Shown here piece after piece: positions 3,706 through 26,060 of a stretch of 34,745 nucleotides of DNA. The position numbers and the translations under genes were made by a program. Source of the DNA: a virus. Its lineage: Duplodnaviria; Caudoviricetes. The first letter of the stretch is position 1, and every line of letters begins with the position of its first letter. The notes beneath the pieces are model-generated. The model saw nothing but the letters and a program-made list of their open reading frames with translations. It ran no database searches and was not told the origin of the DNA. The DNA lies in the IMG/VR virus record IMGVR_UViG_3300009124_000047, positions 1 to 34,745 of that record; one strand, given 5' to 3'.

Positions 3706-6700
3706 GTGGCCGTCAGAAAGTTCATCCTCGTTGCCGGACAGAGCAACGCGACTGAGATCGGAGATGCTCAAGGGTGGGAGGACGAGAACCCCTACCTTGC
3801 GATCAGAAGCCCGCAGCATGAGGCTTCTCAGACTCCGCAGTTCAGCAACGGAGCCTACAACGATCTCCTGACTCTGCCCTACACGTTCAACGGCGGGCAG
3901 CAGACGGACTTCAAGGGTGACGGAACGGCTGCGAGCCAGTGGCAATACTCGAACGTCATCGGCAGCGCGTCGCAGGCGATCCGCTACCTGACGTTCTACG
4001 ATCCGACGCCTAGTTACTTCAACTTTGGTGTTGGTGTTACTTCTAACTACCCTGGCACAGGCACGATCCTGACCGGCAGCACGTCTACGTCGCTAACGAC
4101 AAACATCCGTTGGCAAGTAGACCCTGACGGCATCGTGCTCACGCGGCAGCGGACGGGCCAGCAGCACACTATCCAGTCCGGGTGGTCGTCGGCGACTGCA
4201 ACCGTCACCATCAGCCCGCCGATGGTTCCGCCGCCTGAAGTTGGAGAACTCTTTGACTACGAAATTGAAGGTGGAGGCGACGGCGGAGGATCGAGCTACA
4301 GCACTACGACCCAACTGGTGTTCAAGAACCAGTTTGGCGGCAACGCTTTCTCCACAACGGCGGAAGACTTGGTGCTCAGTTCCGTCATTGACGACGACGG
4401 AGTCTACGCCTCTTACATCTCCCACATCCGCAACGCCGACGGCACTAAGGATGCGGCGCGAGTAACTTGCCGGGGTCGGCTTATCAAAGTCGGCGACATC
4501 ATCCAGTTCGAGAATGGCACCAGCGGAACTCTTGCAAACGTCACTGGCGTAGTTACTGGGTCGTCTACCACTCCCAACACTAACTATTACGTCACGCGGG
4601 TGTTGTCGCAGGGGGCGACGGTTGCGCTGGCTTCTACTACTTGGGACCACGAAGACAACCAGATCCGCCTGAGCGGCCACAAGTTAGCGCACAACGAACC
4701 CATCCAGTTCAGCGGGAACATCCCGTCGGATTTGGACGAGGACACTACCTACTACGTCAACACCCACATCACGGTTGGCAGTAGCGATTGGGACGACACA
4801 ACAGATCGAATCACTATTACTGGGCACGGCCTAGACGCCAACGACATCGTAGTTTTTGTCAACGACGGCACGACTGCGTCCAGCCTTCCTAGTGGCGGTG
4901 AGATCACGATTGACACGCCTTACTACGTCATCGTCGTAGATGAAAACACGATTCAGTTAAAGGCGTCTTCTAGTGGTAGCGCCGTGGATTTCAGCGGCAC
5001 CTCATCGGGTGACTCCATCATCACCCTGCCCAACATCTTCCGCTTGCAAAGCGGGATCAGCGGTTCAGCGGTCACTTTCTCGGCGATCGCAGGAAACGAC
5101 CCAAGCACGGCTACCCGCCTCGATTCCTACGCCAACTTTTACATCTCGGCGTCTGTCGGCGGAACAGAAGTTCAAGCAGACGCAGACTCTAGTCGCGACG
5201 CTACGTTTGCCAACGAACTCAAGCTCCAGCACACAGATGTCTTCCGAGGCAGCCTGACGGGCCTGCAAGCCCGTTGCGTTGATGGCACGCCAGCCAACAT
5301 CGGCGTAGCTAAGGCTTTGGCAGACATCGAATACAACACGACCGACTCCAGAAGTGTGGTCACTTGCGATGCTTGGGACACCGCGCCTGCTGAGAACGAC
5401 GTGTTTGTCATCGAGCCCACGGGACAGGCTGCCGACTTCCACAAGTGGGCGATGTGGCTGCCCTGGTGCCCGTTCGAGGGCAAGGCGTCCTACGTGGGGC
5501 CGGGACTGGTGTTTAGCCTGTCTAGCACAACCGGAAGCACGCTGTTCGGAATTGGTCTAGGGACGCTGTCGCCGCTGCAAGTGAACTCAAAGGTTCGTTT
5601 CTACACAAGCGGCAGCCTCCCGTCTCCGCTGGTGGAAGGTAAGGACTATTTCATCCACACGCTGACGGGCGGCGGGACGACCTTCTTCTTAAAGGAGACC
5701 TACGACAGCACGACGGCTATCCAAGGAGACAGCACCAGTGCAGGCTCGGGTGTCCACACCTTCTACATCGTAGACGCGGAGGGTAAGGCCAACCCCTACC
5801 CGCCGGGGTTCAACTACCCGAACCACCACGCGATCCCGCGTGCCTACCAGCCTTTCGATGGCTCGTCCTACATCAACAGGCCGCCGAGCATCGGGTTCCA
5901 CACGGGTCTCGCCTACCGCCTGCACGAACACTACGGCGAGGTGATGAACGTCGCGGTCAGCGCCATCGGCGGAACCAGCGTCGGGCACAAGGAAGTCTGG
6001 GATGTCGATACTGGCGTCCAGTTGGGCCATGCGTGGCTCGACGTGATGCAGCAAAAGTCTTGGTCTCCCGGTGAGCCCAACAACTGTTTTGCGCGTCTAG
6101 AGGACGTTCTGGACGCCGCCAAGACTGCGTTCACGGCAGACGGTGACACCGGAGAATGCGTCGGCATCTTCTGGGCGCAGGGCGAGTCTGACGCTGGCAA
6201 CCAGAGGCTTGCCAACAACTACGAGGATGGCACGCGCAAGCTGCGTGCAGCGATCCGCAAGGCTGTCAAGAGCCGTGGGTTGACCACGCTGGACGAGGAC
6301 AAGATTCCGTTCGTTCACCCGAAGATCAAGGAGATCACGAACTGGGCCTACGCCACCACGGTGAACACCGCGATCCAGACGTTGGCAGACGAAGATCCCT
6401 ACAGCCGCACGTTCAGCGTTGCAGACCTAGAACTCAACCCTGCCGACGGCGTCCACTACACGGGCAAGGGGATGAACGACTTGGGGGATCTGTGCTACAC
6501 GGCTTGGAAGAACATCCAGCGTTCGGGCTCGTCGGAGGTGGACATCTGCAACCTCGCCCTGACGCACATCGGCGACAAGGCCACGATCACCAGCATCAAC
6601 CCATCCGATGGCAGCCACCAAGCCGACCTTTGTGCTCGATACTATCCTCTGGCAAGAGATCTACTACTGGAGCGGCATCGTTGGGACTTCACCATCCGGC

Positions 6701-7155
6701 AAGTCTCTCCTGTGGCTCTCAGCGCTAGTGGACGGACAGACTGGGAGTATGCCTACCGGCTGCCGAGCAACTTCGCGGGAGTTATCGCGGTCCTCGCGAA
6801 GGACTCGACGGACGACCAGATCTCGGAAGGGACCGCAGCCCCGCAGCCTTTCGCGATCGAGTCGAACATAGACCAGGACCGGGTTCTCTACTGCAACCTC
6901 AAGGACGTGGTGTTGCGCTACCAAGCCAAGATCACGGACAGCACCAAGTTCAGCCAGATGTTCGTCCACGCCATCTCTTGGCAGTTGGCGAGCATGTTGG
7001 CGGGTGCGCTCATCAAGGGTGACGACGGGGCCGCAGCGGTCCAGAACGCTACGAGGATGGCTGAGTTCTACGCCGAGCGTGCGGCGGCGTTCGACAGCAG
7101 GACGACCCGCGACAAGCCGGTCGTTGACACCAACACGAACCCCTGGGATCGCTAG
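3706..7155 (+). CDS. Tail tubular protein A (adaptor) fused to a split SGNH/SASA-type carbohydrate esterase with repeated beta domains
   Basis: GQSN (aa 11-14), AIGGTS (~753), QGESD (~825), DGVHY (~914); C-terminal ~210 aa SEVDICNLALTHIG...LLERHRWDF...YAYRLPS typical of adaptors; gene precedes the nozzle. Confidence 0.85.
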   Translation: MAVRKFILVAGQSNATEIGDAQGWEDENPYLAIRSPQHEASQTPQFSNGAYNDLLTLPYTFNGGQQTDFKGDGTAASQWQYSNVIGSASQAIRYLTFYDPTPSYFNFGVGVTSNYPGTGTILTGSTSTSLTTNIRWQVDPDGIVLTRQRTGQQHTIQSGWSSATATVTISPPMVPPPEVGELFDYEIEGGGDGGGSSYSTTTQLVFKNQFGGNAFSTTAEDLVLSSVIDDDGVYASYISHIRNADGTKDAARVTCRGRLIKVGDIIQFENGTSGTLANVTGVVTGSSTTPNTNYYVTRVLSQGATVALASTTWDHEDNQIRLSGHKLAHNEPIQFSGNIPSDLDEDTTYYVNTHITVGSSDWDDTTDRITITGHGLDANDIVVFVNDGTTASSLPSGGEITIDTPYYVIVVDENTIQLKASSSGSAVDFSGTSSGDSIITLPNIFRLQSGISGSAVTFSAIAGNDPSTATRLDSYANFYISASVGGTEVQADADSSRDATFANELKLQHTDVFRGSLTGLQARCVDGTPANIGVAKALADIEYNTTDSRSVVTCDAWDTAPAENDVFVIEPTGQAADFHKWAMWLPWCPFEGKASYVGPGLVFSLSSTTGSTLFGIGLGTLSPLQVNSKVRFYTSGSLPSPLVEGKDYFIHTLTGGGTTFFLKETYDSTTAIQGDSTSAGSGVHTFYIVDAEGKANPYPPGFNYPNHHAIPRAYQPFDGSSYINRPPSIGFHTGLAYRLHEHYGEVMNVAVSAIGGTSVGHKEVWDVDTGVQLGHAWLDVMQQKSWSPGEPNNCFARLEDVLDAAKTAFTADGDTGECVGIFWAQGESDAGNQRLANNYEDGTRKLRAAIRKAVKSRGLTTLDEDKIPFVHPKIKEITNWAYATTVNTAIQTLADEDPYSRTFSVADLELNPADGVHYTGKGMNDLGDLCYTAWKNIQRSGSSEVDICNLALTHIGDKATITSINPSDGSHQADLCARYYPLARDLLLERHRWDFTIRQVSPVALSASGRTDWEYAYRLPSNFAGVIAVLAKDSTDDQISEGTAAPQPFAIESNIDQDRVLYCNLKDVVLRYQAKITDSTKFSQMFVHAISWQLASMLAGALIKGDDGAAAVQNATRMAEFYAERAAAFDSRTTRDKPVVDTNTNPWDR

Positions 7156-7157
7156 AA

Positions 7158-10100
7158 ATGCCGAAGACTCGCAAGCTCCAGTTGGCGTTCTCGGGCGGCG
7201 AGATCGACCCCCAGATGTATGGGCGGATCGACTCTCCGCAGTATCAGTCGGGGCTTGCGACCTGCAAGAACTGGATGGTGGACCCGAGAGGCACGCTGCG
7301 GCGGCGTCCTGGTATGCAGCGGGTGGCGAGCAGTCTGGACAGCGCCAACGCCTCGCGCCTAATTCCGTTCACCTACTCGGTGGACCAGCAACTTGCGGTC
7401 GAACTTACGGACCAGAAGATCCGGTTCCACGCCAACGGCCAAACCGTGGTCTGGGCCGACCTCAAGAAGTTCGACAGGTTCGTCACTGGCAACACGCTGG
7501 TGTTCGATGAGCCCCACGGGTTTGTAAACGACGAGAGAATCGTCTTTTACGCCAAGGCTACCACGGGCGGGGCTGACGCTATCAGTCAGTTGCCTGCGCC
7601 TCTAAACGACTTCCCGAACAACAACTATCACGTTCAAGTCGTAGACAGCAAGCGGATCAAGGTCTTGGATGACGAGGGAGGCTCTGTCGTCAGCCTGACG
7701 GATGCTGGTGCCGGATACAACTACTACGCTTTCCGCCACGGCGGGGTAGACGGCAAGATCGGGCCAGCGCAGGAATACCGAGGCTACGTCCGAGGCATAA
7801 CCACGTCGGTCACGTTGTTCGAGCCCAGCCTGTCTTCTGGTTTTTGTCTTCAGTTTGGGACGCAGCCAGTAACCCAGATCACAGACTGGCAACAAGGCGA
7901 ACGTGTGCAGCTTGTCACTTTGCAGACGGCTGCGGCAGGCGGGGACACGATCCCTGTCGCCAGCATCCCGCAACCGTTGTATGTAGACTTTACGGCGGGA
8001 GGGACCGCTGGATGTGGAAGCAGTGTCAAGTTTGGGCTCCGCACTAGCCGTGAGTTTGTCGGCACGCCTGTAGACACCAACGGTGACACCTACATTACCG
8101 CAGACCAACTCAGCGCCGCAGCCGCCAGCACCCCAGGAGCCATTTACTACAGCAGCATTGGACGAACTCCTGTTTGGATCAGGCAGTTCTACGAGGCTGG
8201 AGACCTATTGTATGTGAACGAAAGCCGAGCAGATCCTGCTACTCCTACTTGGATCAGTGCGGGCGATAGGTGCGAGATGTGGCGCGTCACCAAGTCGTTC
8301 GGGGCGACGCTCATCCAAAATAACGCTCCGAGCACAGATTGGAACGCGGTCAAAGCCAGCAGCCTTGAGGCCGTAGACGGAGACGGCTCGTTCTCTTTGT
8401 CGTCCCCGTTCTTGAAGGAAGAACTGTTCGACATCGAATACGACCAGTCGGGCGACGTGGTCACGCTGACGCACCCGAACCATCCCCCGCAAGACCTCAA
8501 GCGGTTTGACACGGTCAACTGGACGCTGGGGCCGGTGGACTTCAGCCCGCAGTTGCAGCCCCCTGCCAACATCGACGGCAGCGTAGACCGTGGTCAAGTC
8601 TACTCGTTTGCCTTGGGCTATCAGAATAGCACAGACTCAAGAGCAACTGTGCTAACCATGCGTCCCAGCGCGGTCATTACTACCCCCGACAGTTTTCACC
8701 CATTCGCAGTTGGGGACACGGTCTACATTGCAAACGACGGTATTAACTCTGCCAGCATTACGTCTTTCTTCGGGACATCCGGTGGGGTCATTGACCGCTA
8801 CTACACAGTTGCGGAGATCGGCGTCAATGTGGCAACCGGCGTAACAAACAACAACCAGATCACGCTTCGTGATAACGAGACGGGCGAGCTTGTTACGCAC
8901 ACATTTGGCACTGTTACTGAAAACTATTTCGTCACCGGCAACGACGTGCTCGTCTACTACAGCGTAGCCGACGCTGACAACGAGCAGAAATACAAGGTCA
9001 CGGCGGTAGACGCTCGCGGGCAAGAGAGCCTTGGATCTGCCGAGAAGGTTCTGGAGAACGTGCTGTCTGTCCCCGGCAGCAGCAACACCATCACGTTCGA
9101 CGCGGTCCCAAACGCCCGCTCCTACAACGTCTACAAGGAGATCAACGGCACGTTTGGTTTCATCGGGCAAGTCGAGAACAGGCCAGACACCACCACCTAC
9201 TCCTTCGAGGACGACAACATCGGCCCCGACTTGTCTCAGACGTTGCTGGTCCCCGACAGCGAAGTGCAGGGCAGTTTCCAGCCGCGTGCGGCGGCCCGCT
9301 TCGAGCAGCGCCGATGCTTTGGTGGCTCGGACGCCTTGCCTCGCACGCTTTTTATGAGCCGCACAGGGACGGAGTCCTCGTTCTCTTACCGCTTCCCGAT
9401 CCAGCCTGACGACCGCATCTCGGTGGACCTAGCGTCCCGTGAGGCGCACGTCATTCGCCACATCGTGCCGGTGCAGGACTTGCTGATGATGACGCAGCAG
9501 GGCGAGTTCCGGGTAACCGCGATCAACAGCGACGCGATTACGCCGAACACCATCGCGATCCGGCAGCAGTCCTACGTCGGCAGCAACAACGTCCACCCGC
9601 AGGTAGTCAACAACTCTGTAGTCTTCTGCTCCGCCCGAGGCGGTCATGCGCGGGAGATGAACTTCCGCGTTGAAAGCCAAGGCTACCTGACGGGTGACTT
9701 ATCCTTGCGGGCAGCGCACTTGTTCGACGGGTTTACCCTGAACGACTTGGCCTACTCCAAGGCTCCGACGCCGGTCCTGTGGTTCGTGTCCAGCAGCGGC
9801 AAGCTCTTGTGCCTGACCTACATCCCCGAGGAGCAGGTGCTGGCATGGCACCAGCATGAGACGGAAGGCGCTGTAGAGAGCATCTGTAGCATCTCAGAAG
9901 GCGACTACGACAACCTCTACGTCATCGTCAAGCGTGGCAGCGACAGGTCCGTGGAGCGGCTTGTGCAGGTCCGCGAGGAGGCGCTAGAGGACGCTGTTTA
10001 CTTGGACGCCAGCGTCAGCCAAGACGGCACGAACACGTCTGCGGACAGGTTCAACATCCTGTCTTCTGGGCTCTACCAGAAGGGTGACACGGTCACGGTC

Positions 10101-10802
10101 ACGGCGATGGAGTCCAGTTCCACGACCGCCAAGGCTGGTTTGTTCTCCAGCGATGATGTCGGCGCGGTGCTGGAGTTCACGCTGGATGGCAGCAAGTATC
10201 GGGTGTCGATTGACACCTACGTCTCGGCGACCCAGTTCACGGGCAAACTGCTCTCGGATCTGCCCAGTGGTCTTAGGAACACCCCGACCTCGTCTTGGGC
10301 TTTTGCCTACAAGACATTCACGGGCTACCAGCACCTAATAGGCCAGACCATCACCGTGCTGGCGGACGGCGTGCGTCAGGAGACGGTGACGGTCGAGCCT
10401 GTCTATGACCCGGTCAGCGTTATTAACCCTCCGCTGGTTATAACGGATGGCTCAATCACCTTGTCCGACTACGCCGTCAAGGTGTGCGCGGGCTTGCCCT
10501 ACGTCTCACAGGCAAAGACCTTGCCCATGAGCCTGGAGGTAGAGGCTGGCGCTCAGGGTCGGACCAAGAACGTCAACCAAGTCTTCGTGCGGGTGGAGGA
10601 CACGGGCGCGTTGCAGGTTGGGATGGACGAGGCTGACCTGAAATCGGTCACAGAACTAAGCAACCTGTTGTTGAAGACGGGCGAGTTCCGAACGAGCGTG
10701 CCGTCTACTTGGGACGACGAGGGTCAGATCGTGGTAGAGGCCACGGGCGCTGCTCCTGCCAACCTACTGAACATCACGACCCAAGTGTCGATCGGAGACT
10801 AG
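7158..10802 (+). CDS. Tail tubular protein B (nozzle, T7 gp12-like) with insertions
   Basis: FSGGEIDPQMYGRID, RRRPG, RLIPF, QSGDVVTLTHPNHPP, FEQRRCFGG, EQVLAWHQH, GLPY motifs; 1214 aa. Confidence 0.9.
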   Translation: MPKTRKLQLAFSGGEIDPQMYGRIDSPQYQSGLATCKNWMVDPRGTLRRRPGMQRVASSLDSANASRLIPFTYSVDQQLAVELTDQKIRFHANGQTVVWADLKKFDRFVTGNTLVFDEPHGFVNDERIVFYAKATTGGADAISQLPAPLNDFPNNNYHVQVVDSKRIKVLDDEGGSVVSLTDAGAGYNYYAFRHGGVDGKIGPAQEYRGYVRGITTSVTLFEPSLSSGFCLQFGTQPVTQITDWQQGERVQLVTLQTAAAGGDTIPVASIPQPLYVDFTAGGTAGCGSSVKFGLRTSREFVGTPVDTNGDTYITADQLSAAAASTPGAIYYSSIGRTPVWIRQFYEAGDLLYVNESRADPATPTWISAGDRCEMWRVTKSFGATLIQNNAPSTDWNAVKASSLEAVDGDGSFSLSSPFLKEELFDIEYDQSGDVVTLTHPNHPPQDLKRFDTVNWTLGPVDFSPQLQPPANIDGSVDRGQVYSFALGYQNSTDSRATVLTMRPSAVITTPDSFHPFAVGDTVYIANDGINSASITSFFGTSGGVIDRYYTVAEIGVNVATGVTNNNQITLRDNETGELVTHTFGTVTENYFVTGNDVLVYYSVADADNEQKYKVTAVDARGQESLGSAEKVLENVLSVPGSSNTITFDAVPNARSYNVYKEINGTFGFIGQVENRPDTTTYSFEDDNIGPDLSQTLLVPDSEVQGSFQPRAAARFEQRRCFGGSDALPRTLFMSRTGTESSFSYRFPIQPDDRISVDLASREAHVIRHIVPVQDLLMMTQQGEFRVTAINSDAITPNTIAIRQQSYVGSNNVHPQVVNNSVVFCSARGGHAREMNFRVESQGYLTGDLSLRAAHLFDGFTLNDLAYSKAPTPVLWFVSSSGKLLCLTYIPEEQVLAWHQHETEGAVESICSISEGDYDNLYVIVKRGSDRSVERLVQVREEALEDAVYLDASVSQDGTNTSADRFNILSSGLYQKGDTVTVTAMESSSTTAKAGLFSSDDVGAVLEFTLDGSKYRVSIDTYVSATQFTGKLLSDLPSGLRNTPTSSWAFAYKTFTGYQHLIGQTITVLADGVRQETVTVEPVYDPVSVINPPLVITDGSITLSDYAVKVCAGLPYVSQAKTLPMSLEVEAGAQGRTKNVNQVFVRVEDTGALQVGMDEADLKSVTELSNLLLKTGEFRTSVPSTWDDEGQIVVEATGAAPANLLNITTQVSIGD

Positions 10803-11622: not shown

Positions 11623-14108
11623 TGCCTAGAGTTCCTAGTGTCGGGCTGTCGCCCACGTCGCGACCGCAGTTCCAGGCTCCTGGGGTTGTAGCTTACGGAG
11701 GCCGTCCGCAGGAGATGCAGGACGCGATGCGTCTCGGCGCGGGCATGGAGCGGATGGGCCGGGTCGTCTCTCAGATCGGGCTAGAGATCGAGGACAAGGT
11801 CAACGACGCCCGTGCGATGGAGGCTACCAACGCCTTCGAGAACGGCGTCAGCAAGGCGTTCTTGGAGTATCGGCAACTCAAGGGCAAGGATGGCGTAGAC
11901 GGTCTCGCGGCGTTCCAGCAGCAGGTCCAAGAACTGCGTGACAGCGCAGGCGGCATGTTGATGAACGACATGCAACGGGCTGCCGCCATGCCGATCTTTG
12001 ACAAGATTGGAGCCCGCACAGATCTGCGTGCTCAAGAGCACTACATGGGTGCAGCCGCTGAATACAAGCAGCAGCAGGTTGTAGCCGAGCGCATCAAGCT
12101 GGAAGACGCTCTGCGGTCTGAGCCTCTAGGAGCCAACTCGGTGGCCTTGTTCATGCGCCTGCGCCAGAACTTGGCGAAGGAAGCGGAGGGCTTGGGCTAC
12201 AGCGACGAGCGGCTGGATGCCCACGTCCTAGAGAACACCAGCAAGCTGGTCAACAACCTGTTCAACCACTACGCCGACAGCGACCGACCGGAAGATGCTC
12301 TTGCGTTCCTGCAAGCGGTCGAGGTCTTTGAGCAGTCCCCGATGTCTGCGGCGCAAGGCCCAGCCTCAATGCGCGGCAAGACCTACGAGGAAGCCAAGGC
12401 TGCGGCGGAAGCGGAGAAGCAGCCTGTAGGCGCGGTGATGTTTGAGAGCACTCGCGCCAGCCTTAAGAAGAAGGCCAAGAACCTCAGCCTCAACACTTGG
12501 GCCATGAGGACTGTGGATGGCTACCAGTCTGCCAGCGATGCGTTTGAGGACGCTGAGGTCAAGTTTACGTCAGGCGAGTGGACAGCCGCAGAACGTGAGG
12601 CTTTTGAGAAACGAGCCGCGACGGTCTTTGACCGCCAACGAACTCTCAGCGGTATCGCAGCCAGCGAAACTCTGGAAGCCGCGAAAAGCGAATACATGCG
12701 GGATGGCAAGATTAGTCAAGCCACGCGGGACTCGCTTGACGGCGCTAGAAAGCTAGACGACTTCGTAGGCTGGGTTGGCCGTGTCTCTGACGGCAAGGCA
12801 TCAGATCAGGGAGATTCCTTGAAGTGGGGTGCATACCAAGCCGCTTACGACAACGACACCGGCATTGCAGGGATAGCATCTAGGATTAGAACGCGAGAAG
12901 ACCTGATGCTTGTCTTTAAAGACGCTCTGGGCGCTGGCGCAACTCAGGCAGAAGCGAAGGCTTGGGCTCGCAAGATCGGCCAGCGATCTAAATACGGGGA
13001 GCAAAAGGACGTAGAGGAGGAGCTACAAGGTCTATCGACTGCGACAGACGTTGAGCAATACGCTACTGATTGGTTTGGAGGTCAGTGGGCTGGCGTCATT
13101 GAGCAAGCCAAGATGGGCGACAGCGACAAAGTCAAGGAGGCTGCAACCGCCACACTTGGCTTAAAGTCGGATCGCACCCGAGAGTTCAAGCAGGCTTTTG
13201 ACAAGAAGGTCCGAGAGCTTAGGCTTCTGAATACTGGCCTTGAGGGCGAGGCTTTGCTGGAGCGTGCGCGCAGTGAAGCGTGGCAAGACGGGATCAGGAC
13301 TTACGAGGTCGGAGGAGAGACTCGCAAGATCAACACTTGGCTAGCGCGGCCTTCCGAGATTGAGGCTGCCACCATTGCCGCAACGCCCGCTGGGACTCTT
13401 AGCACTCTTGAGGGCTACATGACGACCTACCGCGTGGTCGGTGAGCCAGACGATCCCAAGCGTCAGCAGACAATCCTTGAGGCGGCCACCCAAGAGTTTG
13501 TAAGAGAGAACATGCCAGCGACCATGCTGGCTGAACGTCGCCAAAGAGAACTTGATCTTGCAAGGAACGCCAGCGCCGCGATGCGAATGATGGGCTTGCC
13601 ACAGCCTATGGCTGCAACGATGGCTGCCGTAGGGGCCATGCAGGCGTATCCACCGTTGCCGCAGCGAGCAGCTTTAGATATTGACTCTCCAGCCGGTCAG
13701 TTCCGACTCCTGCAAATCGCTCAAGAGATCCAGTTGCGTGACACTGAATCTCTGACAAAGGCAGAGCGACAGGATCAACTGAAGCGTGAGCTTTGGTCGT
13801 CCATCAACAGGGACATCGAACACGATGGTTGGCTGACTTCTGCCATCGAAGAAAGCGGCAGAGGGCGTGGAGGAATGAGTCCGGGCCGGGTGTTCTATTT
13901 AGAGCAAAGATATTTAGATGAGGCAGGGCCAACAAGACTAGAGTGGGAGACTCGCGGTATGACGGAAGAGTCTTTTATGGAAGTCTTAAGTCTGCACCCA
14001 ACTTTAGCAAAGGCGCGAAGTCCAGGCTTATTTGCTAAGAGCTACTGGACTCCGCAACCTTACCCCGAAGAAGGGCAAGAGCCCCAAGCAGTAGAGGCTG
14101 GGCGATGA
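11622..14108 (+). CDS. Internal virion (ejection) protein
   Basis: MPRVP start, YRQLKGKDGV motif, helical, 828 aa; synteny. Confidence 0.7.
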   Translation: MPRVPSVGLSPTSRPQFQAPGVVAYGGRPQEMQDAMRLGAGMERMGRVVSQIGLEIEDKVNDARAMEATNAFENGVSKAFLEYRQLKGKDGVDGLAAFQQQVQELRDSAGGMLMNDMQRAAAMPIFDKIGARTDLRAQEHYMGAAAEYKQQQVVAERIKLEDALRSEPLGANSVALFMRLRQNLAKEAEGLGYSDERLDAHVLENTSKLVNNLFNHYADSDRPEDALAFLQAVEVFEQSPMSAAQGPASMRGKTYEEAKAAAEAEKQPVGAVMFESTRASLKKKAKNLSLNTWAMRTVDGYQSASDAFEDAEVKFTSGEWTAAEREAFEKRAATVFDRQRTLSGIAASETLEAAKSEYMRDGKISQATRDSLDGARKLDDFVGWVGRVSDGKASDQGDSLKWGAYQAAYDNDTGIAGIASRIRTREDLMLVFKDALGAGATQAEAKAWARKIGQRSKYGEQKDVEEELQGLSTATDVEQYATDWFGGQWAGVIEQAKMGDSDKVKEAATATLGLKSDRTREFKQAFDKKVRELRLLNTGLEGEALLERARSEAWQDGIRTYEVGGETRKINTWLARPSEIEAATIAATPAGTLSTLEGYMTTYRVVGEPDDPKRQQTILEAATQEFVRENMPATMLAERRQRELDLARNASAAMRMMGLPQPMAATMAAVGAMQAYPPLPQRAALDIDSPAGQFRLLQIAQEIQLRDTESLTKAERQDQLKRELWSSINRDIEHDGWLTSAIEESGRGRGGMSPGRVFYLEQRYLDEAGPTRLEWETRGMTEESFMEVLSLHPTLAKARSPGLFAKSYWTPQPYPEEGQEPQAVEAGR

Positions 14109-17100
14109 ATGACTTTGTAGGGTCTCCCCCTCTGTTTGGCGAAGCGCCCAGCCTTCCCCAGCAGATCCGCGCCAACTTCTTAGAGCCTCAAGAGCAAGAC
14201 CCTAAGAAGTCGCGGGAACTCAAGACTCTACAAGCGGCAGGGGTAGACCCTAGCCTTGACGTTGAGAAAGCCAAGGCTCGCTTCTTGGCCGACACGTTCA
14301 GTAACACGAACTGGGTGCAGCGTCACCCAACGCTTGCAGCCAAGCTGGCTGACCGCAACTACGTCCAGATTGCTCGCGATGATGTAGGCAACATCATTGA
14401 GACGGAGGGCTTGGTTAACGAGATGGCGAACGCTTGGCGCGTGTCTCGGGACACCGTCTTCGCGGGCAAGATCGGAACCCGCGCCATGCTAGAGGTTCGC
14501 GATCTGCACCCTTACGAAAGGGAGCGACTGAAGCGTGCTCAAGAGCTTGCCAGCGCCTACATGGCAAGCGACCCAGGGTTTATCGCTTCGTCGGTAGAAC
14601 TAGCCGGAACCTTGGTGGAGACAGCGGGGGTTTCGGCGGTTGCTGGCGGAGTAACCGGAGCCGTCTTCCCGCCTGCTGCGCCTTACGTGGCGGGCGCGGC
14701 TGCCTACGCGGCGAGCTTTCAGTTAGAGGGCGGCAACCTCTACGCGGAACTCTTGCGCGAGTTTCAGGGCTCTATCACCCCGGCTGAAGCCAGAGACATC
14801 GCTATCGGCTACGGCTCAGTCATCGCCGGGGCGGACCTGATTGGTCTCAAGGTGGCTACCGCCCCCATCAAGGGTCTCATCAAGGAGATCGCCAAGAAGC
14901 GCGGCAAGGGCTTGTTGACCCGAGAAGCAGCGTCTCGCATGACGCTAAGGATTGTCGGTCAAGGTCTAGGCGGAGCGGTTGGTGAGGCTACTACCGAAGG
15001 CGTCCAAGACGTTCTTCAAGAGCGCGCCAAGCGCATTGCCTCCGAGCTTTACCGGCCCGACAACCTCTACGAGCCTGAATACGAAGAGTCGTTCTGGCGT
15101 GCCTTCAACCACACCTTCAAAGGCATGGTCTTGATGGCCGGTGTGCCCACCGGGGTGCGGGTCGTCAACACCAACATCAAGGTTGCTAACGCCAACTACG
15201 ACTACGAGCAAGCCAAGAAGGCTGCCGAGATCCGTGGACGCAGCAAGGCTCCCGAGGCCCAGCGTGAAGTTGAGGCAGAGGCTGGTGAGTCAGACACGCT
15301 GAACTCTACCTACTACGTCCGCGCTCAAGACTTCAACAAGGCAATCTCTGAGCTAGCAGAGCAGACGGATGTCACGGAGCAGCAGGTTCGCGACACGGTC
15401 GAAGCCAACAGCCCTGGTCTGATGGCGAGGATCGACGAGGCCGCAGAACGTGACGGCGAGGTTGAACTGACCAAGTCTGAGTGGGGCGCAGCCTTTGACA
15501 ACACCAAGTTCAGAGATACTGCTCTGTTGAACACGGCGTTTGAGGAGGACGGCCTGACTCAACGGGAAGCCAAGGAGGTTGACCTCATTCGCGATAAGGT
15601 CGTGAAGGAAGAGGGTGAGGCTGCTGCTAAGAAACTTCAGGAGTTGGAAGCGTTTGAGCGCGAGCTTCGCGAAGTCCGCAAGGAGATGCGCCAGCAGTTA
15701 GATGTCGTCCTAAAGGGCACAGACGCAGCGCAGACGATGAACGCAGCGGCTAACGCTGCCGTGCTGATGGGCTTTATCCGGCGCGGGGCTCTCCAAATGA
15801 ACATCTCTCCGCGAGAGTTCGTAGAGAAGCACCTGCCCCAGATCGTGCAGCAGCGCCTGACGGGTCAGGAAGCCGCTCAAGCCCAGCAACAACAGCAAGC
15901 CCAGCAGCAGACCGAGCAGCAAGCAGAGACGCTTGAGACGTTTGCCCAAGACTTGCCGGAAACGCCTGAAGAGCAGCGCGCACGCATGGAGCGCATGCTC
16001 GACGCTCGCGAAAAAGCAGACGAAGAGATGCGAGCGAGGGGTCAAACCGTGCGGTCAAAGGTGCCGGGAGAGACCGAAAGCCCTCCGACGCGCCCGATGA
16101 CGACCGACGACATTACCACGGTCGAGCAGGCAGACCAGTTGCTAGAAGAACTGGCGACGCGCCGCGCCAATGACATAGAGCAGGCTTCGGGGGTTCAAGT
16201 CGCTGAATTTGACCGAGACCGCGCACGCATCGAGGCTCGCCGCGCCCAACTGGCTGGCGAGCAGCAGACCGAGCAGCAGACCGAGCAACAAGCCCAAACA
16301 GACACCCTAGAGTCCGGCACCTTCGACCAAGACGCCGACTACACGTTCACGGAAGGTGACTACCGCCCCGAGGTCGTAGCCTGGGCCAAGGAGCAGTTCG
16401 GGGACCGCGTCGCTCCCAACGGCAAGCCTGTCTACCAGAACTTCGTGCGCTGGTTCGGGGACAGCAAGGTGGTAGATGCGGAGGGTAAGCCGCTAGTGGT
16501 TTACCACGCGACAACCGCAGAGTTTTCTAAGTTTGATCGGCAGGCCGAAGGAAGCATGTTCACCTATGGCCGCGAGCCAGGATCAGGTGGCATCTTTTTT
16601 AGTTCGACCCCCTCTCCATATTTTACTGAAGGCTCTCGCGGTCAAGAAAAGGGGGGGAGAACTATACCCGCCTATGTGACGATCAAAAATCCAGCGATAG
16701 TGACTAGGGGTTTATCTCTTGAGGAGCAAGCCAAGGCTCTGCGTGAAGCGGAAGAGCAAGGGCATGACGGTGCTATCATTGGAGAAGTTGAATACGTCGC
16801 CTTCAACCCCAACCAGATCAAGTCCACCCTCCAAGGACGCAGCGATGAGTATGGCGACTTCAGCGCCGACCCTCGCATCCTCTACAGCAAGGAGGGCGAC
16901 AAGAAGGTTCTAGGCACCGCCTCCTTCGAGGGCACGGACGCCATCCAGAAGATCCTGCTCGACCCCGACGCCAAGCCCACAACTCTGATGCATGAGTTGA
17001 TGCACTGGAACTTGGAGTTGATGGCGACCATTGGCCTCGACATCGAAGGCAAACTGGCGCAAGAAGGATACGAAGCAACGGCGCTGGAAAGGCAGATGCT

Positions 17101-20100
17101 GGACGACATCCAGCGTCTTCTGAAGTGGTCCGGCTTCGAGGGCACGCTGACCGAGTGGCGTGCGATGACCACCGACCAGCGCCGTCCCTTCCACGAAGCC
17201 GTCGCTGTCTCCTTCGAGACCTACCTCTACGAAGGCGTCGCTCCTAGTCGTGAGCTTCGCGGCGTGTTCCGCCGTTTGCTGTCTTACATCGCAGGCAAGT
17301 TCGAAGAGTTGGTCAAGGGCTTCCAGAAAGACTACGAGCAAGAGTTTGGCCGTCCTCTTCCTGGCTTGACCGACGAGGTCCGCGCCATCTTCGGGCGCAT
17401 GATGTCAGCCGAGCGCGACGTGCAGGCGTTCTTTGATGAGAGCGAACTCGACGCGATGATGATGACCAAGAAGGAGTGGACGGACTCCGGTCGCGACGCC
17501 GACGAATACGACGAATACGAAAGAGAGTTCAAAGACGCGCTGACCGAGGCCACAGCAGAACTAACGATCCAGCGCATGAAGGAGGTCAAGACCTTCGCGA
17601 ATGCCTACGCGCTGGTGGCTCAGAAGCAGCGCGGTGAACTCCAGCGCATTTCCAAGGAGATCCGGCAGGAAGTCCAAGCCCAGGTCGAGGTTGAATCGGT
17701 CTACCAGTTCGTGTCTTGGATGCGGAAGGGGACTTACCAAAGCGAGAACGGAACGGTTGAGCCTGTCAATCTCCCCTCCGCTGAAGGGACCAAGACATCA
17801 AGGAAGTTGAACGCGGCTATCGTCAAGGCTGTGGCCCCTGACCTTTACGACAAGCTCGCTAGAAGAGGCTTGGTCTCCAAGAACGGCGTGACCTTAGAGA
17901 AGGTGCGCGGCATGTTCGGCTTCGAGAGTAACCGAGCCATGCTGGAAGCTCTGGCTACTCACAGGAACATCAAGGAGGAGGTTCTTCACCGGACAAACCA
18001 AAGGCTGCTTAACGAGCACACATCCTTGATGGACCCGATTGTGCAGCAGGAGAACATCCACGCTGCGGTCCACAACAAGATCCGCCAGAGGGTCGTGGCT
18101 CGCGAACTGAAGTTCCTTCTTCAGAACGGTCGCCGCAGCAAGCAAGAGTTGGAGCTTGCTAAGAGGATCGCGGAGGCGCTGATCGAGAAGACCCCGGTCG
18201 GCAACATCGACATCGTGGCTTACAAGCGCGCCGCTGCTCGCGCTCGCAAGAAGGCGTTGAAGGCGTTGAAGGACGGCGACATGGAGGCTGCTGCCTTTGC
18301 CAAGCGCCAGGAGTTGGTCAACGAGCAGATGATCGTGGAGGGCTTGAAGGCTCGCAAGGAAGTGCGAAGCCTGATTGAGTCAAACAAGCGTGCGTTCAAG
18401 CACCGGACTGACAAGGCCCTAGCTTCGGCGGGTTACGACGTGACGGTGATGAAAGCCTTGCGTGCTGTGCTGGCTCGCTTGGGTATCGGCAACGTAGACT
18501 TCGATGCCAACGAAGCACTGGCCCGGTTCGTCAAGGAAGACCCCGAGTTTGCAGCGGAGGTTAGCGGCAACATCGCGTCCTTGCTTGGGAAGGACATCGC
18601 GCAGCCGCGAGTCGGTGACCGGCGCAAGCCGATGGAGCACCTGACTCTGGGCGACATCCGTGTTCTGCGCCTGCTGTCAGCCAGGATGATGTTGCGAGCG
18701 AAGAACAAGCTGAAGACTAAGATCGGCGAGAAGCGCCAGCGTGTTGAGGCTGCTCAAGACGAGGCCGCCAGCACCTTGGATAGCAACGTCAAGGACGGCT
18801 CGAAGGATCTCGACGGGAAGAAGAGCATCTTCGGCAAGATCCGAAACTACTTCTCAGACCTCATCCGGTTTGAGCACCTGTTCCGCCGTGCGGATGGAGG
18901 CAAGGTAGGCATCTGGACCCAGATGTTCCGCATGGTCAAGGACGCGGGCAACCGCTACCGCCAAGAGTTTAAGGAGTTCGCGGAAGACTTCGGCAACCGG
19001 CTTCGCGCTCTAGACCTGACGATCCCTGGCGGTGCTCGCGAGCTAGAACTGACCGTTTACGGGAACCGAGTCGTCATCGGAGAGAACGGTCGCAACGTCA
19101 AGTCTCAGTTGATCCACTTGGCGATGCACTACTACGGCAACGCCAGCAACCGTCAGCGTTTGCTTCGAGGCTACATCGGTCAAGACATTGACCCTGAGCT
19201 ACTGGATGAGGCGATGGAGCAGGCAGACTTGGAGGTCAAGACGTTCCTCCAAGAGCAAATCCGTCAAGGTCTCCTGACTCGCAAGGACTTCGAGTTCATG
19301 CAGGAGACCTTCAAGCAGTTGAGCGGGGCCAACATGCTCGGGCGGGCGCAGCAGGTGATGATGCGCCTACGCCACTACGAGATGGACACGATTGAGGGCG
19401 AAAAGTTCTCGGTCCAGTTCCCTGACGGCGAGACTGTCGAGTTTATGGGCGGCTACATCCCTATCCGCTACGACACATCTACGGCGTCAGTGCGTGAGAG
19501 CGATGCTCCTGGTCTTCAAGACGAGGACATGAGCATTGAGCAGCAGGCCACGAGGATGCTCGGGATCTTGCCCAGCTTTACCAAGGACCGGACTGGCCCT
19601 GCTGCGCTTCCCTTGGAACTCAACCTTGCAAACATCCAGCACCACGCCGCCGAGGTCTTCAAGTTCATCCATATGGCTGAACCTGTTACCGAGGTCTACA
19701 AGGTAGTGAGCGGAAGGAAGGTTAGGCAGACCTTCATCCGTAAGTTTGGGACCAAGGCATACCGAAACATGGAGGGCTGGCTTAGGCGCAGCGCCTACCA
19801 GAAGTTTGACAAGAGCGAGGACACTGAGGTTGGCGACATGATGTTGACGTTGGCGAGGAACGCCAACATGGGCATCATGTTCTTGAACATCGGCAACGCC
19901 TTGCAGAACTACGCTGGCCTCATCATCCCGATGCGTAGAGTCGGCGCTCGTCGGATCATCTCGGCGTTGATGAGTAACATGTTCAGCAACGGTCCTCGCG
20001 CTGAGGTTGCGGAGAAGTCAGTCGAGATGAGGATTCGCTTGGATCGCCAAATCTTCGACATCTACAACCAGCAGCAGAAGCTGCTCACGCAGGAGAGCGG

Positions 20101-20962
20101 GGTCTGGGACCGCATCCAAGACTGGTCTAACCGCTACGCCTACTTCCTCCAGCAATGGACTCAGAACCACGTAGACGTGGCGGTTTGGCAGGCGGCCTAC
20201 AACCAAGAGACGGAGGTCGCGCTGCGCGAGATGATCGGGCAGCCGGATGCTGAAGCTAAGGCCGAGGCGAGGGCTGTCGCTTACGCCGACAGCATCGTGC
20301 GTCAGACACAGATGGCTGGCGAGAAGGAAGACTTGAGCAACTTTGAGTCGCAGGGCTCGATCTACCGTGCGATGTTCCCGTTTAAGTCTTGGTTCATCAA
20401 CTGGATGAACAACGCTTCCAACCAGCGGAGGCTAGACATGGACAAAAAGGGGCAGGCCAAGGCTGCCGCGTTGGCTTCATCCTACATGTATCTTCTGATG
20501 CTGCCCGCCATGATGGCGACGGCTGCGGTGGAGATCGCTCGGGGTGAAGACTTCGACGACGACGACGACGGCTACGGCGACGACATGTGGGAGCTTTGGT
20601 GGCGCTCGCAAGCCGAGCAGATCACGGGTGGTCTGCCTGTCATCCAAGAAGCCACCCGTGTCATGGACACGTTCTGGTTTGACGACGAATACTGGAACAA
20701 CCGTTACCCGGCGACGCCGTGGCAGAGAGTCATCGAGAACATCGCCAAGGCTCCGCTCAAGGATGACACCGTAGATGCGGCGGGATCCTTGGTGTCTCAG
20801 ATAGCCGACCTGATGGGTATTCCTGCCTCCCGAGTCTGGAAGTCGGTCAACCTGCTAGGTGACGAGTTCATCCGAGATGATCTTGAGAGCGAGAGCACCT
20901 ACGACTTCATCCGGGGAGCCGTCACAGGCCAGCGGAGCGACCTGCAACGGCTGAGTCAGTAA
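14105..20962 (+). CDS. Giant internal virion / polyvalent protein with ART-like and zincin metallopeptidase-like domains
   Basis: 2285 aa; FVRWFGDSKVVDAEGKPLVVYH...GIFFS...EYVAFNPNQIKS; HELMH (HExxH) and HEAVAVSFETYLYEGVAPS. Confidence 0.8.
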   Translation: MNDFVGSPPLFGEAPSLPQQIRANFLEPQEQDPKKSRELKTLQAAGVDPSLDVEKAKARFLADTFSNTNWVQRHPTLAAKLADRNYVQIARDDVGNIIETEGLVNEMANAWRVSRDTVFAGKIGTRAMLEVRDLHPYERERLKRAQELASAYMASDPGFIASSVELAGTLVETAGVSAVAGGVTGAVFPPAAPYVAGAAAYAASFQLEGGNLYAELLREFQGSITPAEARDIAIGYGSVIAGADLIGLKVATAPIKGLIKEIAKKRGKGLLTREAASRMTLRIVGQGLGGAVGEATTEGVQDVLQERAKRIASELYRPDNLYEPEYEESFWRAFNHTFKGMVLMAGVPTGVRVVNTNIKVANANYDYEQAKKAAEIRGRSKAPEAQREVEAEAGESDTLNSTYYVRAQDFNKAISELAEQTDVTEQQVRDTVEANSPGLMARIDEAAERDGEVELTKSEWGAAFDNTKFRDTALLNTAFEEDGLTQREAKEVDLIRDKVVKEEGEAAAKKLQELEAFERELREVRKEMRQQLDVVLKGTDAAQTMNAAANAAVLMGFIRRGALQMNISPREFVEKHLPQIVQQRLTGQEAAQAQQQQQAQQQTEQQAETLETFAQDLPETPEEQRARMERMLDAREKADEEMRARGQTVRSKVPGETESPPTRPMTTDDITTVEQADQLLEELATRRANDIEQASGVQVAEFDRDRARIEARRAQLAGEQQTEQQTEQQAQTDTLESGTFDQDADYTFTEGDYRPEVVAWAKEQFGDRVAPNGKPVYQNFVRWFGDSKVVDAEGKPLVVYHATTAEFSKFDRQAEGSMFTYGREPGSGGIFFSSTPSPYFTEGSRGQEKGGRTIPAYVTIKNPAIVTRGLSLEEQAKALREAEEQGHDGAIIGEVEYVAFNPNQIKSTLQGRSDEYGDFSADPRILYSKEGDKKVLGTASFEGTDAIQKILLDPDAKPTTLMHELMHWNLELMATIGLDIEGKLAQEGYEATALERQMLDDIQRLLKWSGFEGTLTEWRAMTTDQRRPFHEAVAVSFETYLYEGVAPSRELRGVFRRLLSYIAGKFEELVKGFQKDYEQEFGRPLPGLTDEVRAIFGRMMSAERDVQAFFDESELDAMMMTKKEWTDSGRDADEYDEYEREFKDALTEATAELTIQRMKEVKTFANAYALVAQKQRGELQRISKEIRQEVQAQVEVESVYQFVSWMRKGTYQSENGTVEPVNLPSAEGTKTSRKLNAAIVKAVAPDLYDKLARRGLVSKNGVTLEKVRGMFGFESNRAMLEALATHRNIKEEVLHRTNQRLLNEHTSLMDPIVQQENIHAAVHNKIRQRVVARELKFLLQNGRRSKQELELAKRIAEALIEKTPVGNIDIVAYKRAAARARKKALKALKDGDMEAAAFAKRQELVNEQMIVEGLKARKEVRSLIESNKRAFKHRTDKALASAGYDVTVMKALRAVLARLGIGNVDFDANEALARFVKEDPEFAAEVSGNIASLLGKDIAQPRVGDRRKPMEHLTLGDIRVLRLLSARMMLRAKNKLKTKIGEKRQRVEAAQDEAASTLDSNVKDGSKDLDGKKSIFGKIRNYFSDLIRFEHLFRRADGGKVGIWTQMFRMVKDAGNRYRQEFKEFAEDFGNRLRALDLTIPGGARELELTVYGNRVVIGENGRNVKSQLIHLAMHYYGNASNRQRLLRGYIGQDIDPELLDEAMEQADLEVKTFLQEQIRQGLLTRKDFEFMQETFKQLSGANMLGRAQQVMMRLRHYEMDTIEGEKFSVQFPDGETVEFMGGYIPIRYDTSTASVRESDAPGLQDEDMSIEQQATRMLGILPSFTKDRTGPAALPLELNLANIQHHAAEVFKFIHMAEPVTEVYKVVSGRKVRQTFIRKFGTKAYRNMEGWLRRSAYQKFDKSEDTEVGDMMLTLARNANMGIMFLNIGNALQNYAGLIIPMRRVGARRIISALMSNMFSNGPRAEVAEKSVEMRIRLDRQIFDIYNQQQKLLTQESGVWDRIQDWSNRYAYFLQQWTQNHVDVAVWQAAYNQETEVALREMIGQPDAEAKAEARAVAYADSIVRQTQMAGEKEDLSNFESQGSIYRAMFPFKSWFINWMNNASNQRRLDMDKKGQAKAAALASSYMYLLMLPAMMATAAVEIARGEDFDDDDDGYGDDMWELWWRSQAEQITGGLPVIQEATRVMDTFWFDDEYWNNRYPATPWQRVIENIAKAPLKDDTVDAAGSLVSQIADLMGIPASRVWKSVNLLGDEFIRDDLESESTYDFIRGAVTGQRSDLQRLSQ

Positions 20963-21780: not shown

Positions 21781-22068
21781 ATGGCTGACGCCTACAGGAA
21801 CAACGTCATCCGTGCGGCTGGCTACGCGAACAGCACGTTCGACCCGCCTCTGGACGCTCTCTTCGTTACTGCTGCCGCTGGTGCAAATGTCACGATGACG
21901 GTCAGTGGAACGAGCGTGGCGATCCCTTCCGGCCAACTGACGGCGGGGACGTTGTTCGAGGTAGGTGACATCTCTGCGATCAACGCCGCCACGGGCTTCG
22001 CCTTCATCGGACTTCGCGTTCTGAACAAGTCCGGTTCCTCGAACGTCACCAACGACACCGCAGGCTAG
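21781..22068 (+). CDS. Small beta-rich protein, paralog 1 (possible head spike base-like)
   Basis: Shares YRNNV, TFDPPLDA, GTL-x2-VGDI, IGLRVLNKSGSSNVTND with the next gene. Confidence 0.75.
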   Translation: MADAYRNNVIRAAGYANSTFDPPLDALFVTAAAGANVTMTVSGTSVAIPSGQLTAGTLFEVGDISAINAATGFAFIGLRVLNKSGSSNVTNDTAG

Positions 22069-22074
22069 GTAGGT

Positions 22075-22377
22075 ATGAACGGTCCCTACAGAAACAACGT
22101 GGTAGTCGCAAATGCTGGCGACGCCACGTTCGATCCGCCTCTGGACGCCATCTACATCACAGAAGATGCCGATGCTGTAGGCGCGGAGGAGGCGATGGAC
22201 ATCTACGTCGGCGGGGCAGTGTCCAACATCGCGGTCGCTAACCTACGGGGAGGCACGCTGGTCAATGTGGGTGACATCACCAGGATCAACAGCACTGGGA
22301 ACGCCTTCCGCTACATCGGGCTCCGGGTTCTGAACAAGTCGGGATCGTCCAACGTGACGAACGACGTAATCCCTTAA
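22075..22377 (+). CDS. Small beta-rich protein, paralog 2
   Basis: Tandem paralog of 21781-22068. Confidence 0.75.
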   Translation: MNGPYRNNVVVANAGDATFDPPLDAIYITEDADAVGAEEAMDIYVGGAVSNIAVANLRGGTLVNVGDITRINSTGNAFRYIGLRVLNKSGSSNVTNDVIP

Positions 22378-25496: not shown

Positions 25497-25726
25497 TGCG
25501 TAGAGCCCTTCCTCCTCTGGAGCATCTTGATCTCGTTGATTACTTCTAGGCGTTCCCATGACATGCAGTATTCAAGTTTCCTGGTAAGGCGAAGCATCTC
25601 GTCGGCGAACTCACGATCCCTCTCCGTCGCCTTGTTCGGAGCATTCCGACACTTGGTGCATCGCCCCTTGGAGTCGGTCCCAACTTCCTGGGTATCGTGC
25701 CCTTGCTTGCAGAATCGTTCTGGCAT
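25493..25726 (-). CDS. Small Cys/His metal-binding protein
   Basis: CKQGH...RCTKC motif. Confidence 0.6.
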   Translation of the reverse strand: MPERFCKQGHDTQEVGTDSKGRCTKCRNAPNKATERDREFADEMLRLTRKLEYCMSWERLEVINEIKMLQRRKGSTQ

Positions 25727-26060
25727 CTTGTAAGTCTTTCGGGAGTGGTTCGTCGGTTGGGTTCCTGCCGAGGCCGATCTCTAACGCGATCTCGACAGCT
25801 TCAATGGTGGACCTGTAGCCGCTGTCGCTATCCATACGAGATCCGACATACTTCAGCCAATACAGGCAGGTCGTGTGGTTCTTCCTTCTCAGGAAGCGGG
25901 TGATGTCCTCGACGGGCATATTCAGGTGCTTGCGGATCAAGAACGCGGCCACCTTGCGGGGCTCGCTCTCGAACCGCTTGCGCGAGGGACCGAGGATGTC
26001 ATCCCCAGTCACCCCGAACACGCTCGCGACAGCTTGGATGATCTCGTCCGGTGAGGTCAC
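25611..26060 (-). CDS. Stand-alone DnaA C-terminal (domain IV) DNA-binding protein
   Basis: IIQAVASVFGVTGDDILGPSRKR...PRKVAAFLIRKHL...NHTTC matches the Bac_DnaA_C pattern. Confidence 0.85.
   Translation of the reverse strand: MTSPDEIIQAVASVFGVTGDDILGPSRKRFESEPRKVAAFLIRKHLNMPVEDITRFLRRKNHTTCLYWLKYVGSRMDSDSGYRSTIEAVEIALEIGLGRNPTDEPLPKDLQDARTILQARARYPGSWDRLQGAMHQVSECSEQGDGEGS

Follow-up and report, generated by a model that had tools for sequence, protein, structure and literature searches.

The window, by which we mean the whole 34,745-nucleotide stretch of viral DNA analysed here (record completeness 86%), contains a podovirus structural operon. Its genes run in the order protease, major capsid protein (PF20911), Bbp16, a 69-aa ORF, the gene studied here, the nozzle and three more large genes, the first of which matches an internal virion protein family. 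The gene studied here, which encodes an SGNH domain joined to a head-tail adaptor, starts with GTG at 3706 and ends at 7155 on the plus strand, giving a protein of 1149 aa. Its parts follow one another as SGNH-N, B1, B2-N, N1, N2, N3, C3, C2, C1, B2-C, a conserved core stretch, A4, SGNH-C and adaptor:

3706..7155 (+): whole ORF; split SGNH esterase domain, inserted modules and head-tail adaptor; 97 homologues of 659-1473 aa
3706..4056 (+): SGNH N-terminal part, aa 1-117; block I GQSN, with Ser13 at 3742
4057..4266 (+): module B1, aa 118-187; a second type of beta module, intact, also found in nest-less relatives and similar to the B2 C-part (hhalign E 1.5e-5)
4261..4344 (+): B2 N-part, about aa 186-213; host of the nest, lying 2-20 aa from the B2 C-part in 35/119 relatives
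4402..4608 (+): N1, aa 233-301; N-half of the outer barrel A1
4612..4764 (+): N2, aa 303-353; N-half of the middle barrel A2
4765..5028 (+): A3 (N3 and C3), aa 354-441; innermost, intact barrel and predicted arm tip, with a modelled FCCH/endosialidase-type fold
5029..5124 (+): C2, aa 442-473; C-half of A2
5125..5232 (+): C1, aa 474-509; C-half of A1
5233..5421 (+): B2 C-part, aa 510-572; closes the module that hosts the nest
5491..5781 (+): A4, aa 596-692; intact fourth copy of module A, at a site of its own, missing in 15/16 short relatives (alignment A1)
5791..6519 (+): SGNH C-terminal part, aa 696-938; block II at 5968, block III QGESD at 6178, DGVH at 6445; PF03629 E 6.6e-12, 46 bits against a cut-off of 24.8
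6532..7155 (+): head-tail adaptor of the tail tubular protein A type, aa 943-1149; phrog_394, Carin-1 connector
7158..10802 (+): next gene, nozzle (tail tubular protein B); phrog_376 E 5.8e-157, with its own inserted copy of module A near aa 105-190

Other genes of the window deserve a brief description. A 2285-aa protein (14105-20962, plus strand) matches phrog_9880 and carries an ART-PolyVal ADP-ribosyltransferase domain at aa 791-910 that exceeds its cut-off; by its sequence, it is a polyvalent ejected protein. On the 3' side of the large internal virion gene lies a neighbouring pair of paralogous ORFs (95 and 100 aa; 21781-22068 and 22075-22377, plus strand), which returned no match in Pfam, PHROG and NCBIfam scans and may resemble head spike-base proteins. 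Near phage replication genes, a 149-aa ORF (25611-26060, minus strand) is similar to DnaA over the latter's C-terminal DNA-binding region (E 1e-15, far under the whole-protein cut-off).

SGNH esterases are recognized by blocks I (GQSN), II (Gly), III (QGE) and V (DxxH), and all four occur here in order, at aa 11-14, 755-758, 825-829 and 914-917, with the above-cut-off match to PF03629 (SGNH/SASA) spanning aa 674-928. The initial annotation had placed its motifs correctly throughout (block I GQSN, aa 11-14, at 3736; YYV at 4585, 4750 and 4921; C-halves at 4945, 5032 and 5134). GGTS of block II (aa 755) lies at 5968 and DGVH (aa 914-917) at 6445, and the gap of about 740 aa that it gave between blocks I and II measures 744 aa. 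It had described about 700 aa that contain nested repeats; the nest is there and accounts for only about 290 of the 744 aa, the rest being filled by A4, B1 and B2, and nest-less relatives still have about 310-330 aa between the two blocks. The range it gave, 3736..6459, ends before the adaptor fused at aa 943-1149. If the enzyme and B2 are counted, the nest is five layers deep.

A full-length structural model (pLDDT 78.9, pTM 0.74; A3 and C2 of low confidence) bears on how the split enzyme is put together. Because its superposition on acetylxylan esterase 1zmb runs from residue 3 to residue 938 (Z 24.4, rmsd 2.0, 220 aligned), block I is predicted to close onto the C-terminal SGNH half to form one alpha/beta domain, the packing that had been anticipated from the motifs. 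NanS (Z 22.1) and the esterase-like region of the Pan3 tailspike (Z 22.5) also match well; the fold neighbours of the domain include a CE6 esterase, NanS and the Pan3 and G7C tailspikes.

The central question is whether the six segments between the two parts of B2 are halves of one module inserted into itself. Generic half-module HMMs parse the protein as NNCNC, missing the divergent C1, C2 and N1, and profile-profile tests and position-specific profiles were therefore needed. When segment profiles built from 12 proteins of the same clade were compared with half-module profiles built from other clades only (148 rows, P0036 onward), N1, N2 and N3 matched the N-half profile (E 1.4e-6, 2.2e-15 and 1.9e-15), and C3, C2 and C1 matched the C-half profile with a modest to weak signal (E 8e-5, 1.1e-4 and 2.7e-4). 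Cross-matches between the halves stayed at E 0.027 or above and all 7 of 7 control segments at E 0.024 or above, and even the C-half of the intact A4 reaches only E 0.0027 against the C-half profile. Each segment in the proposed order N1-N2-N3-C3-C2-C1 therefore matches the correct half of intact modules from other clades. An NNNCCC parse was also obtained in 10 proteins, with profiles built from the same proteins and hence partly circular. The order of the halves, the zero-to-three series described below, the fusion, the motifs and the gene order are all read from the sequences themselves, and we are highly confident that module A is nested within itself.

The opposite reading, that the N- and C-segments are independent tandem mini-repeats with no nesting, draws on the weakness of the C-half matches and on several relatives that parse as plain NCNCNC with generic profiles. 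We nevertheless consider it very improbable, the least probable of the alternatives weighed here: in two-level relatives one N and one C are missing jointly, one-level relatives run directly from N1 to C1, structural matches are concentric and, by eye, P0037 and P0109 hold NC copies inside a divergent outer barrel.

The structural evidence came mainly from a second AlphaFold model restricted to aa 186-577. It was made with a cleaner alignment of 14 rows of the same architecture, several of them near-duplicates, because the nest was poor in the full-length model, whose 57-row alignment smears gaps across it. This model (pLDDT 77.4, pTM 0.71) is mostly at 80-95 over A2 and A3; the B2 N-part falls below pLDDT 50 in it, whereas it is confident in the full-length model. 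Single-barrel PDB domains of about 75-85 aa, each contiguous, align to concentric ranges of the model: aa 354-443 (A3) to E1 FCCH domains (Z up to 7.9, Uba6 FCCH), and aa 302-473 (A2) to E1 FCCH (Z 7.3, 74 aligned) and to endosialidase barrels (Z 5.0-6.3), with rmsd 2.2-2.3 over 73-74 aligned residues for the FCCH alignments of both. For aa 230-510 (A1) the best match is not FCCH but the IF2-gamma translation-factor barrel (Z 5.3), followed by K1 lyase (Z 4.8); aa 204-572 gives a weak match (Z 4.0), and a few structural rows mix ranges (134-258, 70-288). The model gives concentric rather than contiguous tandem domains, and the pairing of N1 with C1 and of N2 with C2 that had been forecast for AlphaFold agrees with it, as deduced from range ends and aligned lengths and not from contacts. 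As only range ends are known and Z values below 8 are common (the structural-search tool itself terms the 5-8 range of these barrels common), the concentric matches speak for the topology of the model and not for homology. In the same sense, module A is modelled as no more than a fold-alike of the E1 FCCH and endosialidase barrels (PF16190, PF12195). PF12195 reaches only E 0.0023 and 18.3 bits on A3, below its cut-off of 35; PF16190 finds no match in A3, and a Pfam scan of A4 none either. The ESM Atlas offers a lead only, with unnamed clusters at 0.93 and E1_FCCH at 0.88.

Halves could also pair between neighbouring subunits of a ring, such that domain swapping would produce an interlocked collar instead of 12 free arms. 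The high local concentration in a ring and the general capacity of split domains to swap make this conceivable, but the innermost barrel closes within one chain and gathers N2/C2 and then N1/C1, the single-chain model is confident, and arm length varies among close relatives. We regard swapping as improbable, and pairing within each chain remains the reading we follow.

Relatives provide a natural series for the nest. Two homology searches gave 226 proteins including the query, 143 of them with both SGNH parts; 119 of these have both B2 anchors and could be measured, and the 24 without anchors were dropped. Inserts of 2-20 aa (n=35) hold no barrel, those of 101-141 aa (n=5) one, 187-226 aa (n=18) two, 269-330 aa (n=35) three, 355-403 aa (n=16) four and 424-459 aa (n=9) five, with a single odd length (n=1); the period is 82-88 aa, measured among relatives that are not independent. 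Homologues with zero to three nested units, which the initial annotation had expected, are all present. In the one-level proteins P0106, P0133, P0147 and P0130, the N1 motif leads through a short hairpin to the C1 motif, and their barrel fits N1+C1 best (62, against 51 for N1+C3, 45 for A4, 37 for N2+C2 and 30 for A3). A sister clade of 14 proteins has two levels, and pairwise alignment shows that in most of its members one N-half is missing together with one C-half. The best fit of their intact A2 is to N2+C2 (99.5), with a narrow lead over N2+C3 (95), ahead of N3+C3 (79) and N3+C2 (71). P0011, P0013 and P0014 carry an extra fourth copy that is most like A3. A search with the nested region alone (proteins of 631-2011 aa) returned six proteins, all already in the set, and no other family with the nest; GTDB genomes contained no locus for relatives, and a comparison with 50,697 phage records turned up no match and no cultured phage.

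A quick IQ-TREE phylogeny of the SGNH parts (118 rows) shows one change in insert presence and 16 in insert length class, compared with at least 60 when shuffled; in it, the 13 rows of the three-level clade form the sister group of the two-level clade (14 rows). The stepwise growth that we propose would begin with a single entry of A1 into module B2, followed by entry of A2 into the beta-hairpin of A1 and then by entry of a copy of A2 into the corresponding hairpin of A2 itself. The highest scores of A3 are with A3b (90), A2 (82) and the A2 of the sister clade (79), which suggests that it is a self-copy of A2; an out-of-register double crossover and plain insertion of a copy give indistinguishable signals for the origin of level 3. 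The same A2 hairpin holds a different insert of about 100 aa in P0029/31/34, and a common origin of that insert lineage with the window clade is rejected (AU p 0.001; 43 rows, with groups picked after the first tree). A second loop of A1 likewise carries barrels in P0029/30/32/33/34, P0037 and P0109, judged by eye, and in the last two the NC copies lie within the divergent outer barrel. Growth is consequently branched as well as recursive, so that the proposal that each copy entered the same loop of the previous one holds for the nesting but not for all relatives, some of which use the second outer-barrel loop too. Two further proteins, P0156 and P0168, have about 11 module copies in tandem.

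Module A also occurs beyond this gene. Nozzles of the group carry zero to four inserted copies at several sites, and one of them (L002, 8794-13041), with a parse of NNNCN near aa 995-1197, may contain another nest. One or two copies are found in genes directly 3' of the major capsid gene at five loci (L102 2087-2800, L103 5224-6303, L107 5978-6967, L111 3463-4203 and L133 5953-7089). As these genes follow the major capsid gene immediately, the barrel probably decorates capsids too.

At its C-terminal end the protein is a head-tail adaptor. This part matches phrog_394 (E 6.6e-36) and the Carin-1 connector (E 1.4e-30, Z 19.8), and none of the other 24 ORFs scanned in this 86%-complete record matches an adaptor family. 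Gene order at adaptor-fused loci is strict, with the gene 3' of the capsid genes and directly 5' of the nozzle. Among 26 proteins scanned, related SGNH domains sit on phrog_477 adaptors in 8 and on phrog_2545 adaptors in 4, two of whose loci lie between the terminase or its flank and the portal, which we take to be the position of lambda gpW. More distant relatives are fused to PF24175 SU10 adaptors (two above cut-off, one just below). Related esterases are, by family assignment, fused to four different adaptor families, and all identified partners are neck adaptors. A count of adaptor-type changes on the tree (6) was set aside, as the label mixes fragments with a contaminated profile.

Some individual loci vary from this pattern. 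At L022 (2824-4896) and L024 (2542-4500), the esterase cassette with a small phrog_2545 adaptor lies directly before a lambda-type portal, in L022 after the terminase; on their gene context, these fusions are assigned to a different phage type. In L130 (1902-4139), the SGNH N-part and the SGNH-C/adaptor part are in different frames, which indicates a frameshift, a split gene or an assembly error, and L092 (2215-3191) has a tandem pair of Bbp16-like genes.

By analogy with 9EFK, which contains 12 chains of an adaptor homologue, we infer a 12-copy ring of the adaptor in the virion. Fusion to the adaptor places the enzyme at the arm's base and not at its tip. The out-and-back stalk described in the initial annotation survives as a predicted out-and-back arm, but one that would act as an antenna beyond the enzyme, with the active site not carried on it. 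As both ends of a barrel return to one face, a new barrel would lengthen the arm without disturbing enzyme or ring. The secondary structure of the model contains no beta-helix, coiled-coil shaft or fibre repeat with trimer anchor, and trimeric fibre and tailspike families give only a weak module-level match (phrog_9370). Replacement of tail fibres by the arms was considered and rejected, since close relatives have separate fibre genes: tail-fibre-family genes lie between portal and scaffold in L093, L099 and L018, L085 has a beta-helix gene and L143 has two GP4 gp80-like fibre genes. A tail-fibre PHROG was matched by 9 of 25 candidates (E up to 0.01); the portal-scaffold region that holds such genes lies outside the 86%-complete window record.

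Fusion could instead serve co-assembly only, with later cleavage yielding a soluble or release-stage enzyme, and the use of different adaptor families suggests that the partner matters little. However, a continuous helix at aa 920-955 of the full-length model is predicted to link esterase and adaptor across the junction, the alignment shows a short, conserved junction, and the identified partners are all neck adaptors. Cleavage therefore appears quite improbable, slightly more so than swapping.

What the SGNH domain does there is less certain. Ser is kept in 118/143 relatives and replaced by N or D in 18/143, with 7 unassigned, and Ser and His are both kept in 40/57 aligned proteins (A1), including 12/12 of the window clade and the window protein. 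Separate origins are supported for the two main groups without Ser (AU p 0.0014); both retain their arms, and the rest of the domain is conserved in these lineages (C-half identity 53-65%). Some relatives can do without catalysis, since Ser13 has been replaced in at least two separate arm-bearing lineages; the arm is dispensable too, because 35/119 relatives have no barrel in B2.

These data leave room for a reading with the same nested architecture in which the SGNH domain works chiefly as a scaffold for binding or display: the collar would attach to host glycan or protect the neck, and catalysis would be incidental. Independent loss of Ser in at least two arm-bearing lineages that keep the rest of the domain fits it, as does the presence of the same barrel on nozzle and cement-position genes without an enzyme. 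It is harder to reconcile with the retention of Ser in 118/143 relatives, with the Ser and His pair kept in 40/57 aligned proteins and in all 12 rows of the window clade, or with short relatives that have the esterase domain and wholly lack module A. We consider it unlikely, if the most credible of the alternatives. An enzymatic role for the SGNH domain seems rather probable, with esterase activity itself inferred, and by a hair less so the full reading we prefer: an adaptor-SGNH fusion with three nested concentric barrels that forms a 12-copy neck collar and strips host O-acetyl groups during attachment. A collar of 12 O-acetyl esterases at the neck would probably deacetylate or grip host surface polysaccharide, in the manner of G7C-type spikes (PMC11654681), and the barrels, which would extend outward from the enzyme as an antenna, may be spacers and weak glycan binders. 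The barrels, the closure of the split SGNH domain and the esterase-adaptor helix are all predicted features of the models. Endosialidase barrels bind glycan. FCCH barrels are present on many virion surfaces and are not known to have a ligand there.

Parts of this architecture have precedents. Si3 of cyanobacterial RNA polymerase has SBHM repeats, several built from distant parts of the chain, in an elongated insert of 150 A (PMC10895346); as in the nest, repeats of one small beta domain lie within an enzyme and not in simple tandem, but Si3 appears to have another fold, belongs to a cellular enzyme and is present in one copy, whereas the nest belongs to a virion protein with a living zero-to-three-level series and branches. 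The SBHM fold is absent from the rows of structural matches to the nest, and Synechocystis RNA polymerase chains have Foldseek probabilities of 0.04-0.06, to which we attach no weight. Contractile tail sheath proteins have 'Russian doll' domains I-IV and vary in layer number (PMC6088184). They too are phage tail proteins with domain-in-domain insertion, but their layers are different domains, whereas here the same module nests in itself, inside an enzyme on a podophage adaptor; the ORF had no match to the sheath family in Pfam and PHROGs scans, and the comparison is one of analogy only.

Virion esterases that act on O-antigen have been reported (PMC11654681), including the Moo19/B2 tailspikes and, as cited there, G7C gp63.1 (PDB 4QNL), and DEV gp53 has an esterase-like fibre domain, although no LPS hydrolase activity was seen with DEV (PMC10925440). 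Together with Pan3 (PDB 9VYH), these have an SGNH or esterase-like domain on a podophage particle that acts on or binds surface polysaccharide, but their spikes or fibres are proteins of their own; in the window protein, the esterase forms the N-terminal part of the adaptor itself and bears an arm. The Carin-1 connector (8CK1), LME-1 orf17 (9EFK), T7 gp11 and KP32 TTPA share the adaptor fold and sequence. They are about 200 aa long, whereas the window protein adds an N-terminal extension of 942 aa. KP32 TTPA, a 196-aa chain without an SGNH domain, is reportedly dual-function, in the words of a study's title. Outward-facing FCCH barrels occur on siphovirus tail tubes (PMC13576161), and the E1 FCCH and endosialidase barrels resemble module A, as modelled, in being barrels of about 80 aa that lie outward on virion proteins and within glycan-active enzymes (phi92 and K1F endosialidases), but they are normally single or tandem, unlike a module nested in itself. 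Non-trimeric, chain-like fibres are described for A1002 (PMC13730344), and PMC9230969 gave no passage on nesting. Searches of a mostly non-subscription literature, covering nested insertions in the tail proteins of phages, phage FCCH domains and fusions of SGNH domains to adaptors, yielded no description of this protein; Russian-doll nesting itself is known, but these searches gave no published example of a self-nested series on an enzyme borne by an adaptor.

More broadly, and only tentatively, these proteins may represent widespread 'neck enzymes' of uncultured phages. A mobile SGNH cassette carried on unrelated adaptors (T7-gp11-like, two Ad1 families including the one at the lambda gpW position, and SU10-like) would provide short- and long-tailed phages with a ring of glycan esterases, the reach of which would be tuned by a self-inserting FCCH-type barrel that builds linear or branched single-chain antennae, with steps from zero to five modules all extant.

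The family provides a natural record of a repeat protein that grows by self-insertion instead of tandem duplication, in which the tree orders the zero- to three-level forms; the existence of these forms, and of a tree that orders them, makes recursive insertion testable. The fusions also suggest that the head-tail adaptor, usually viewed as a passive ring, repeatedly bears a putative glycan-modifying enzyme in uncultured phages, and the hairpin that has repeatedly taken inserts is a candidate site for single-chain display arms.
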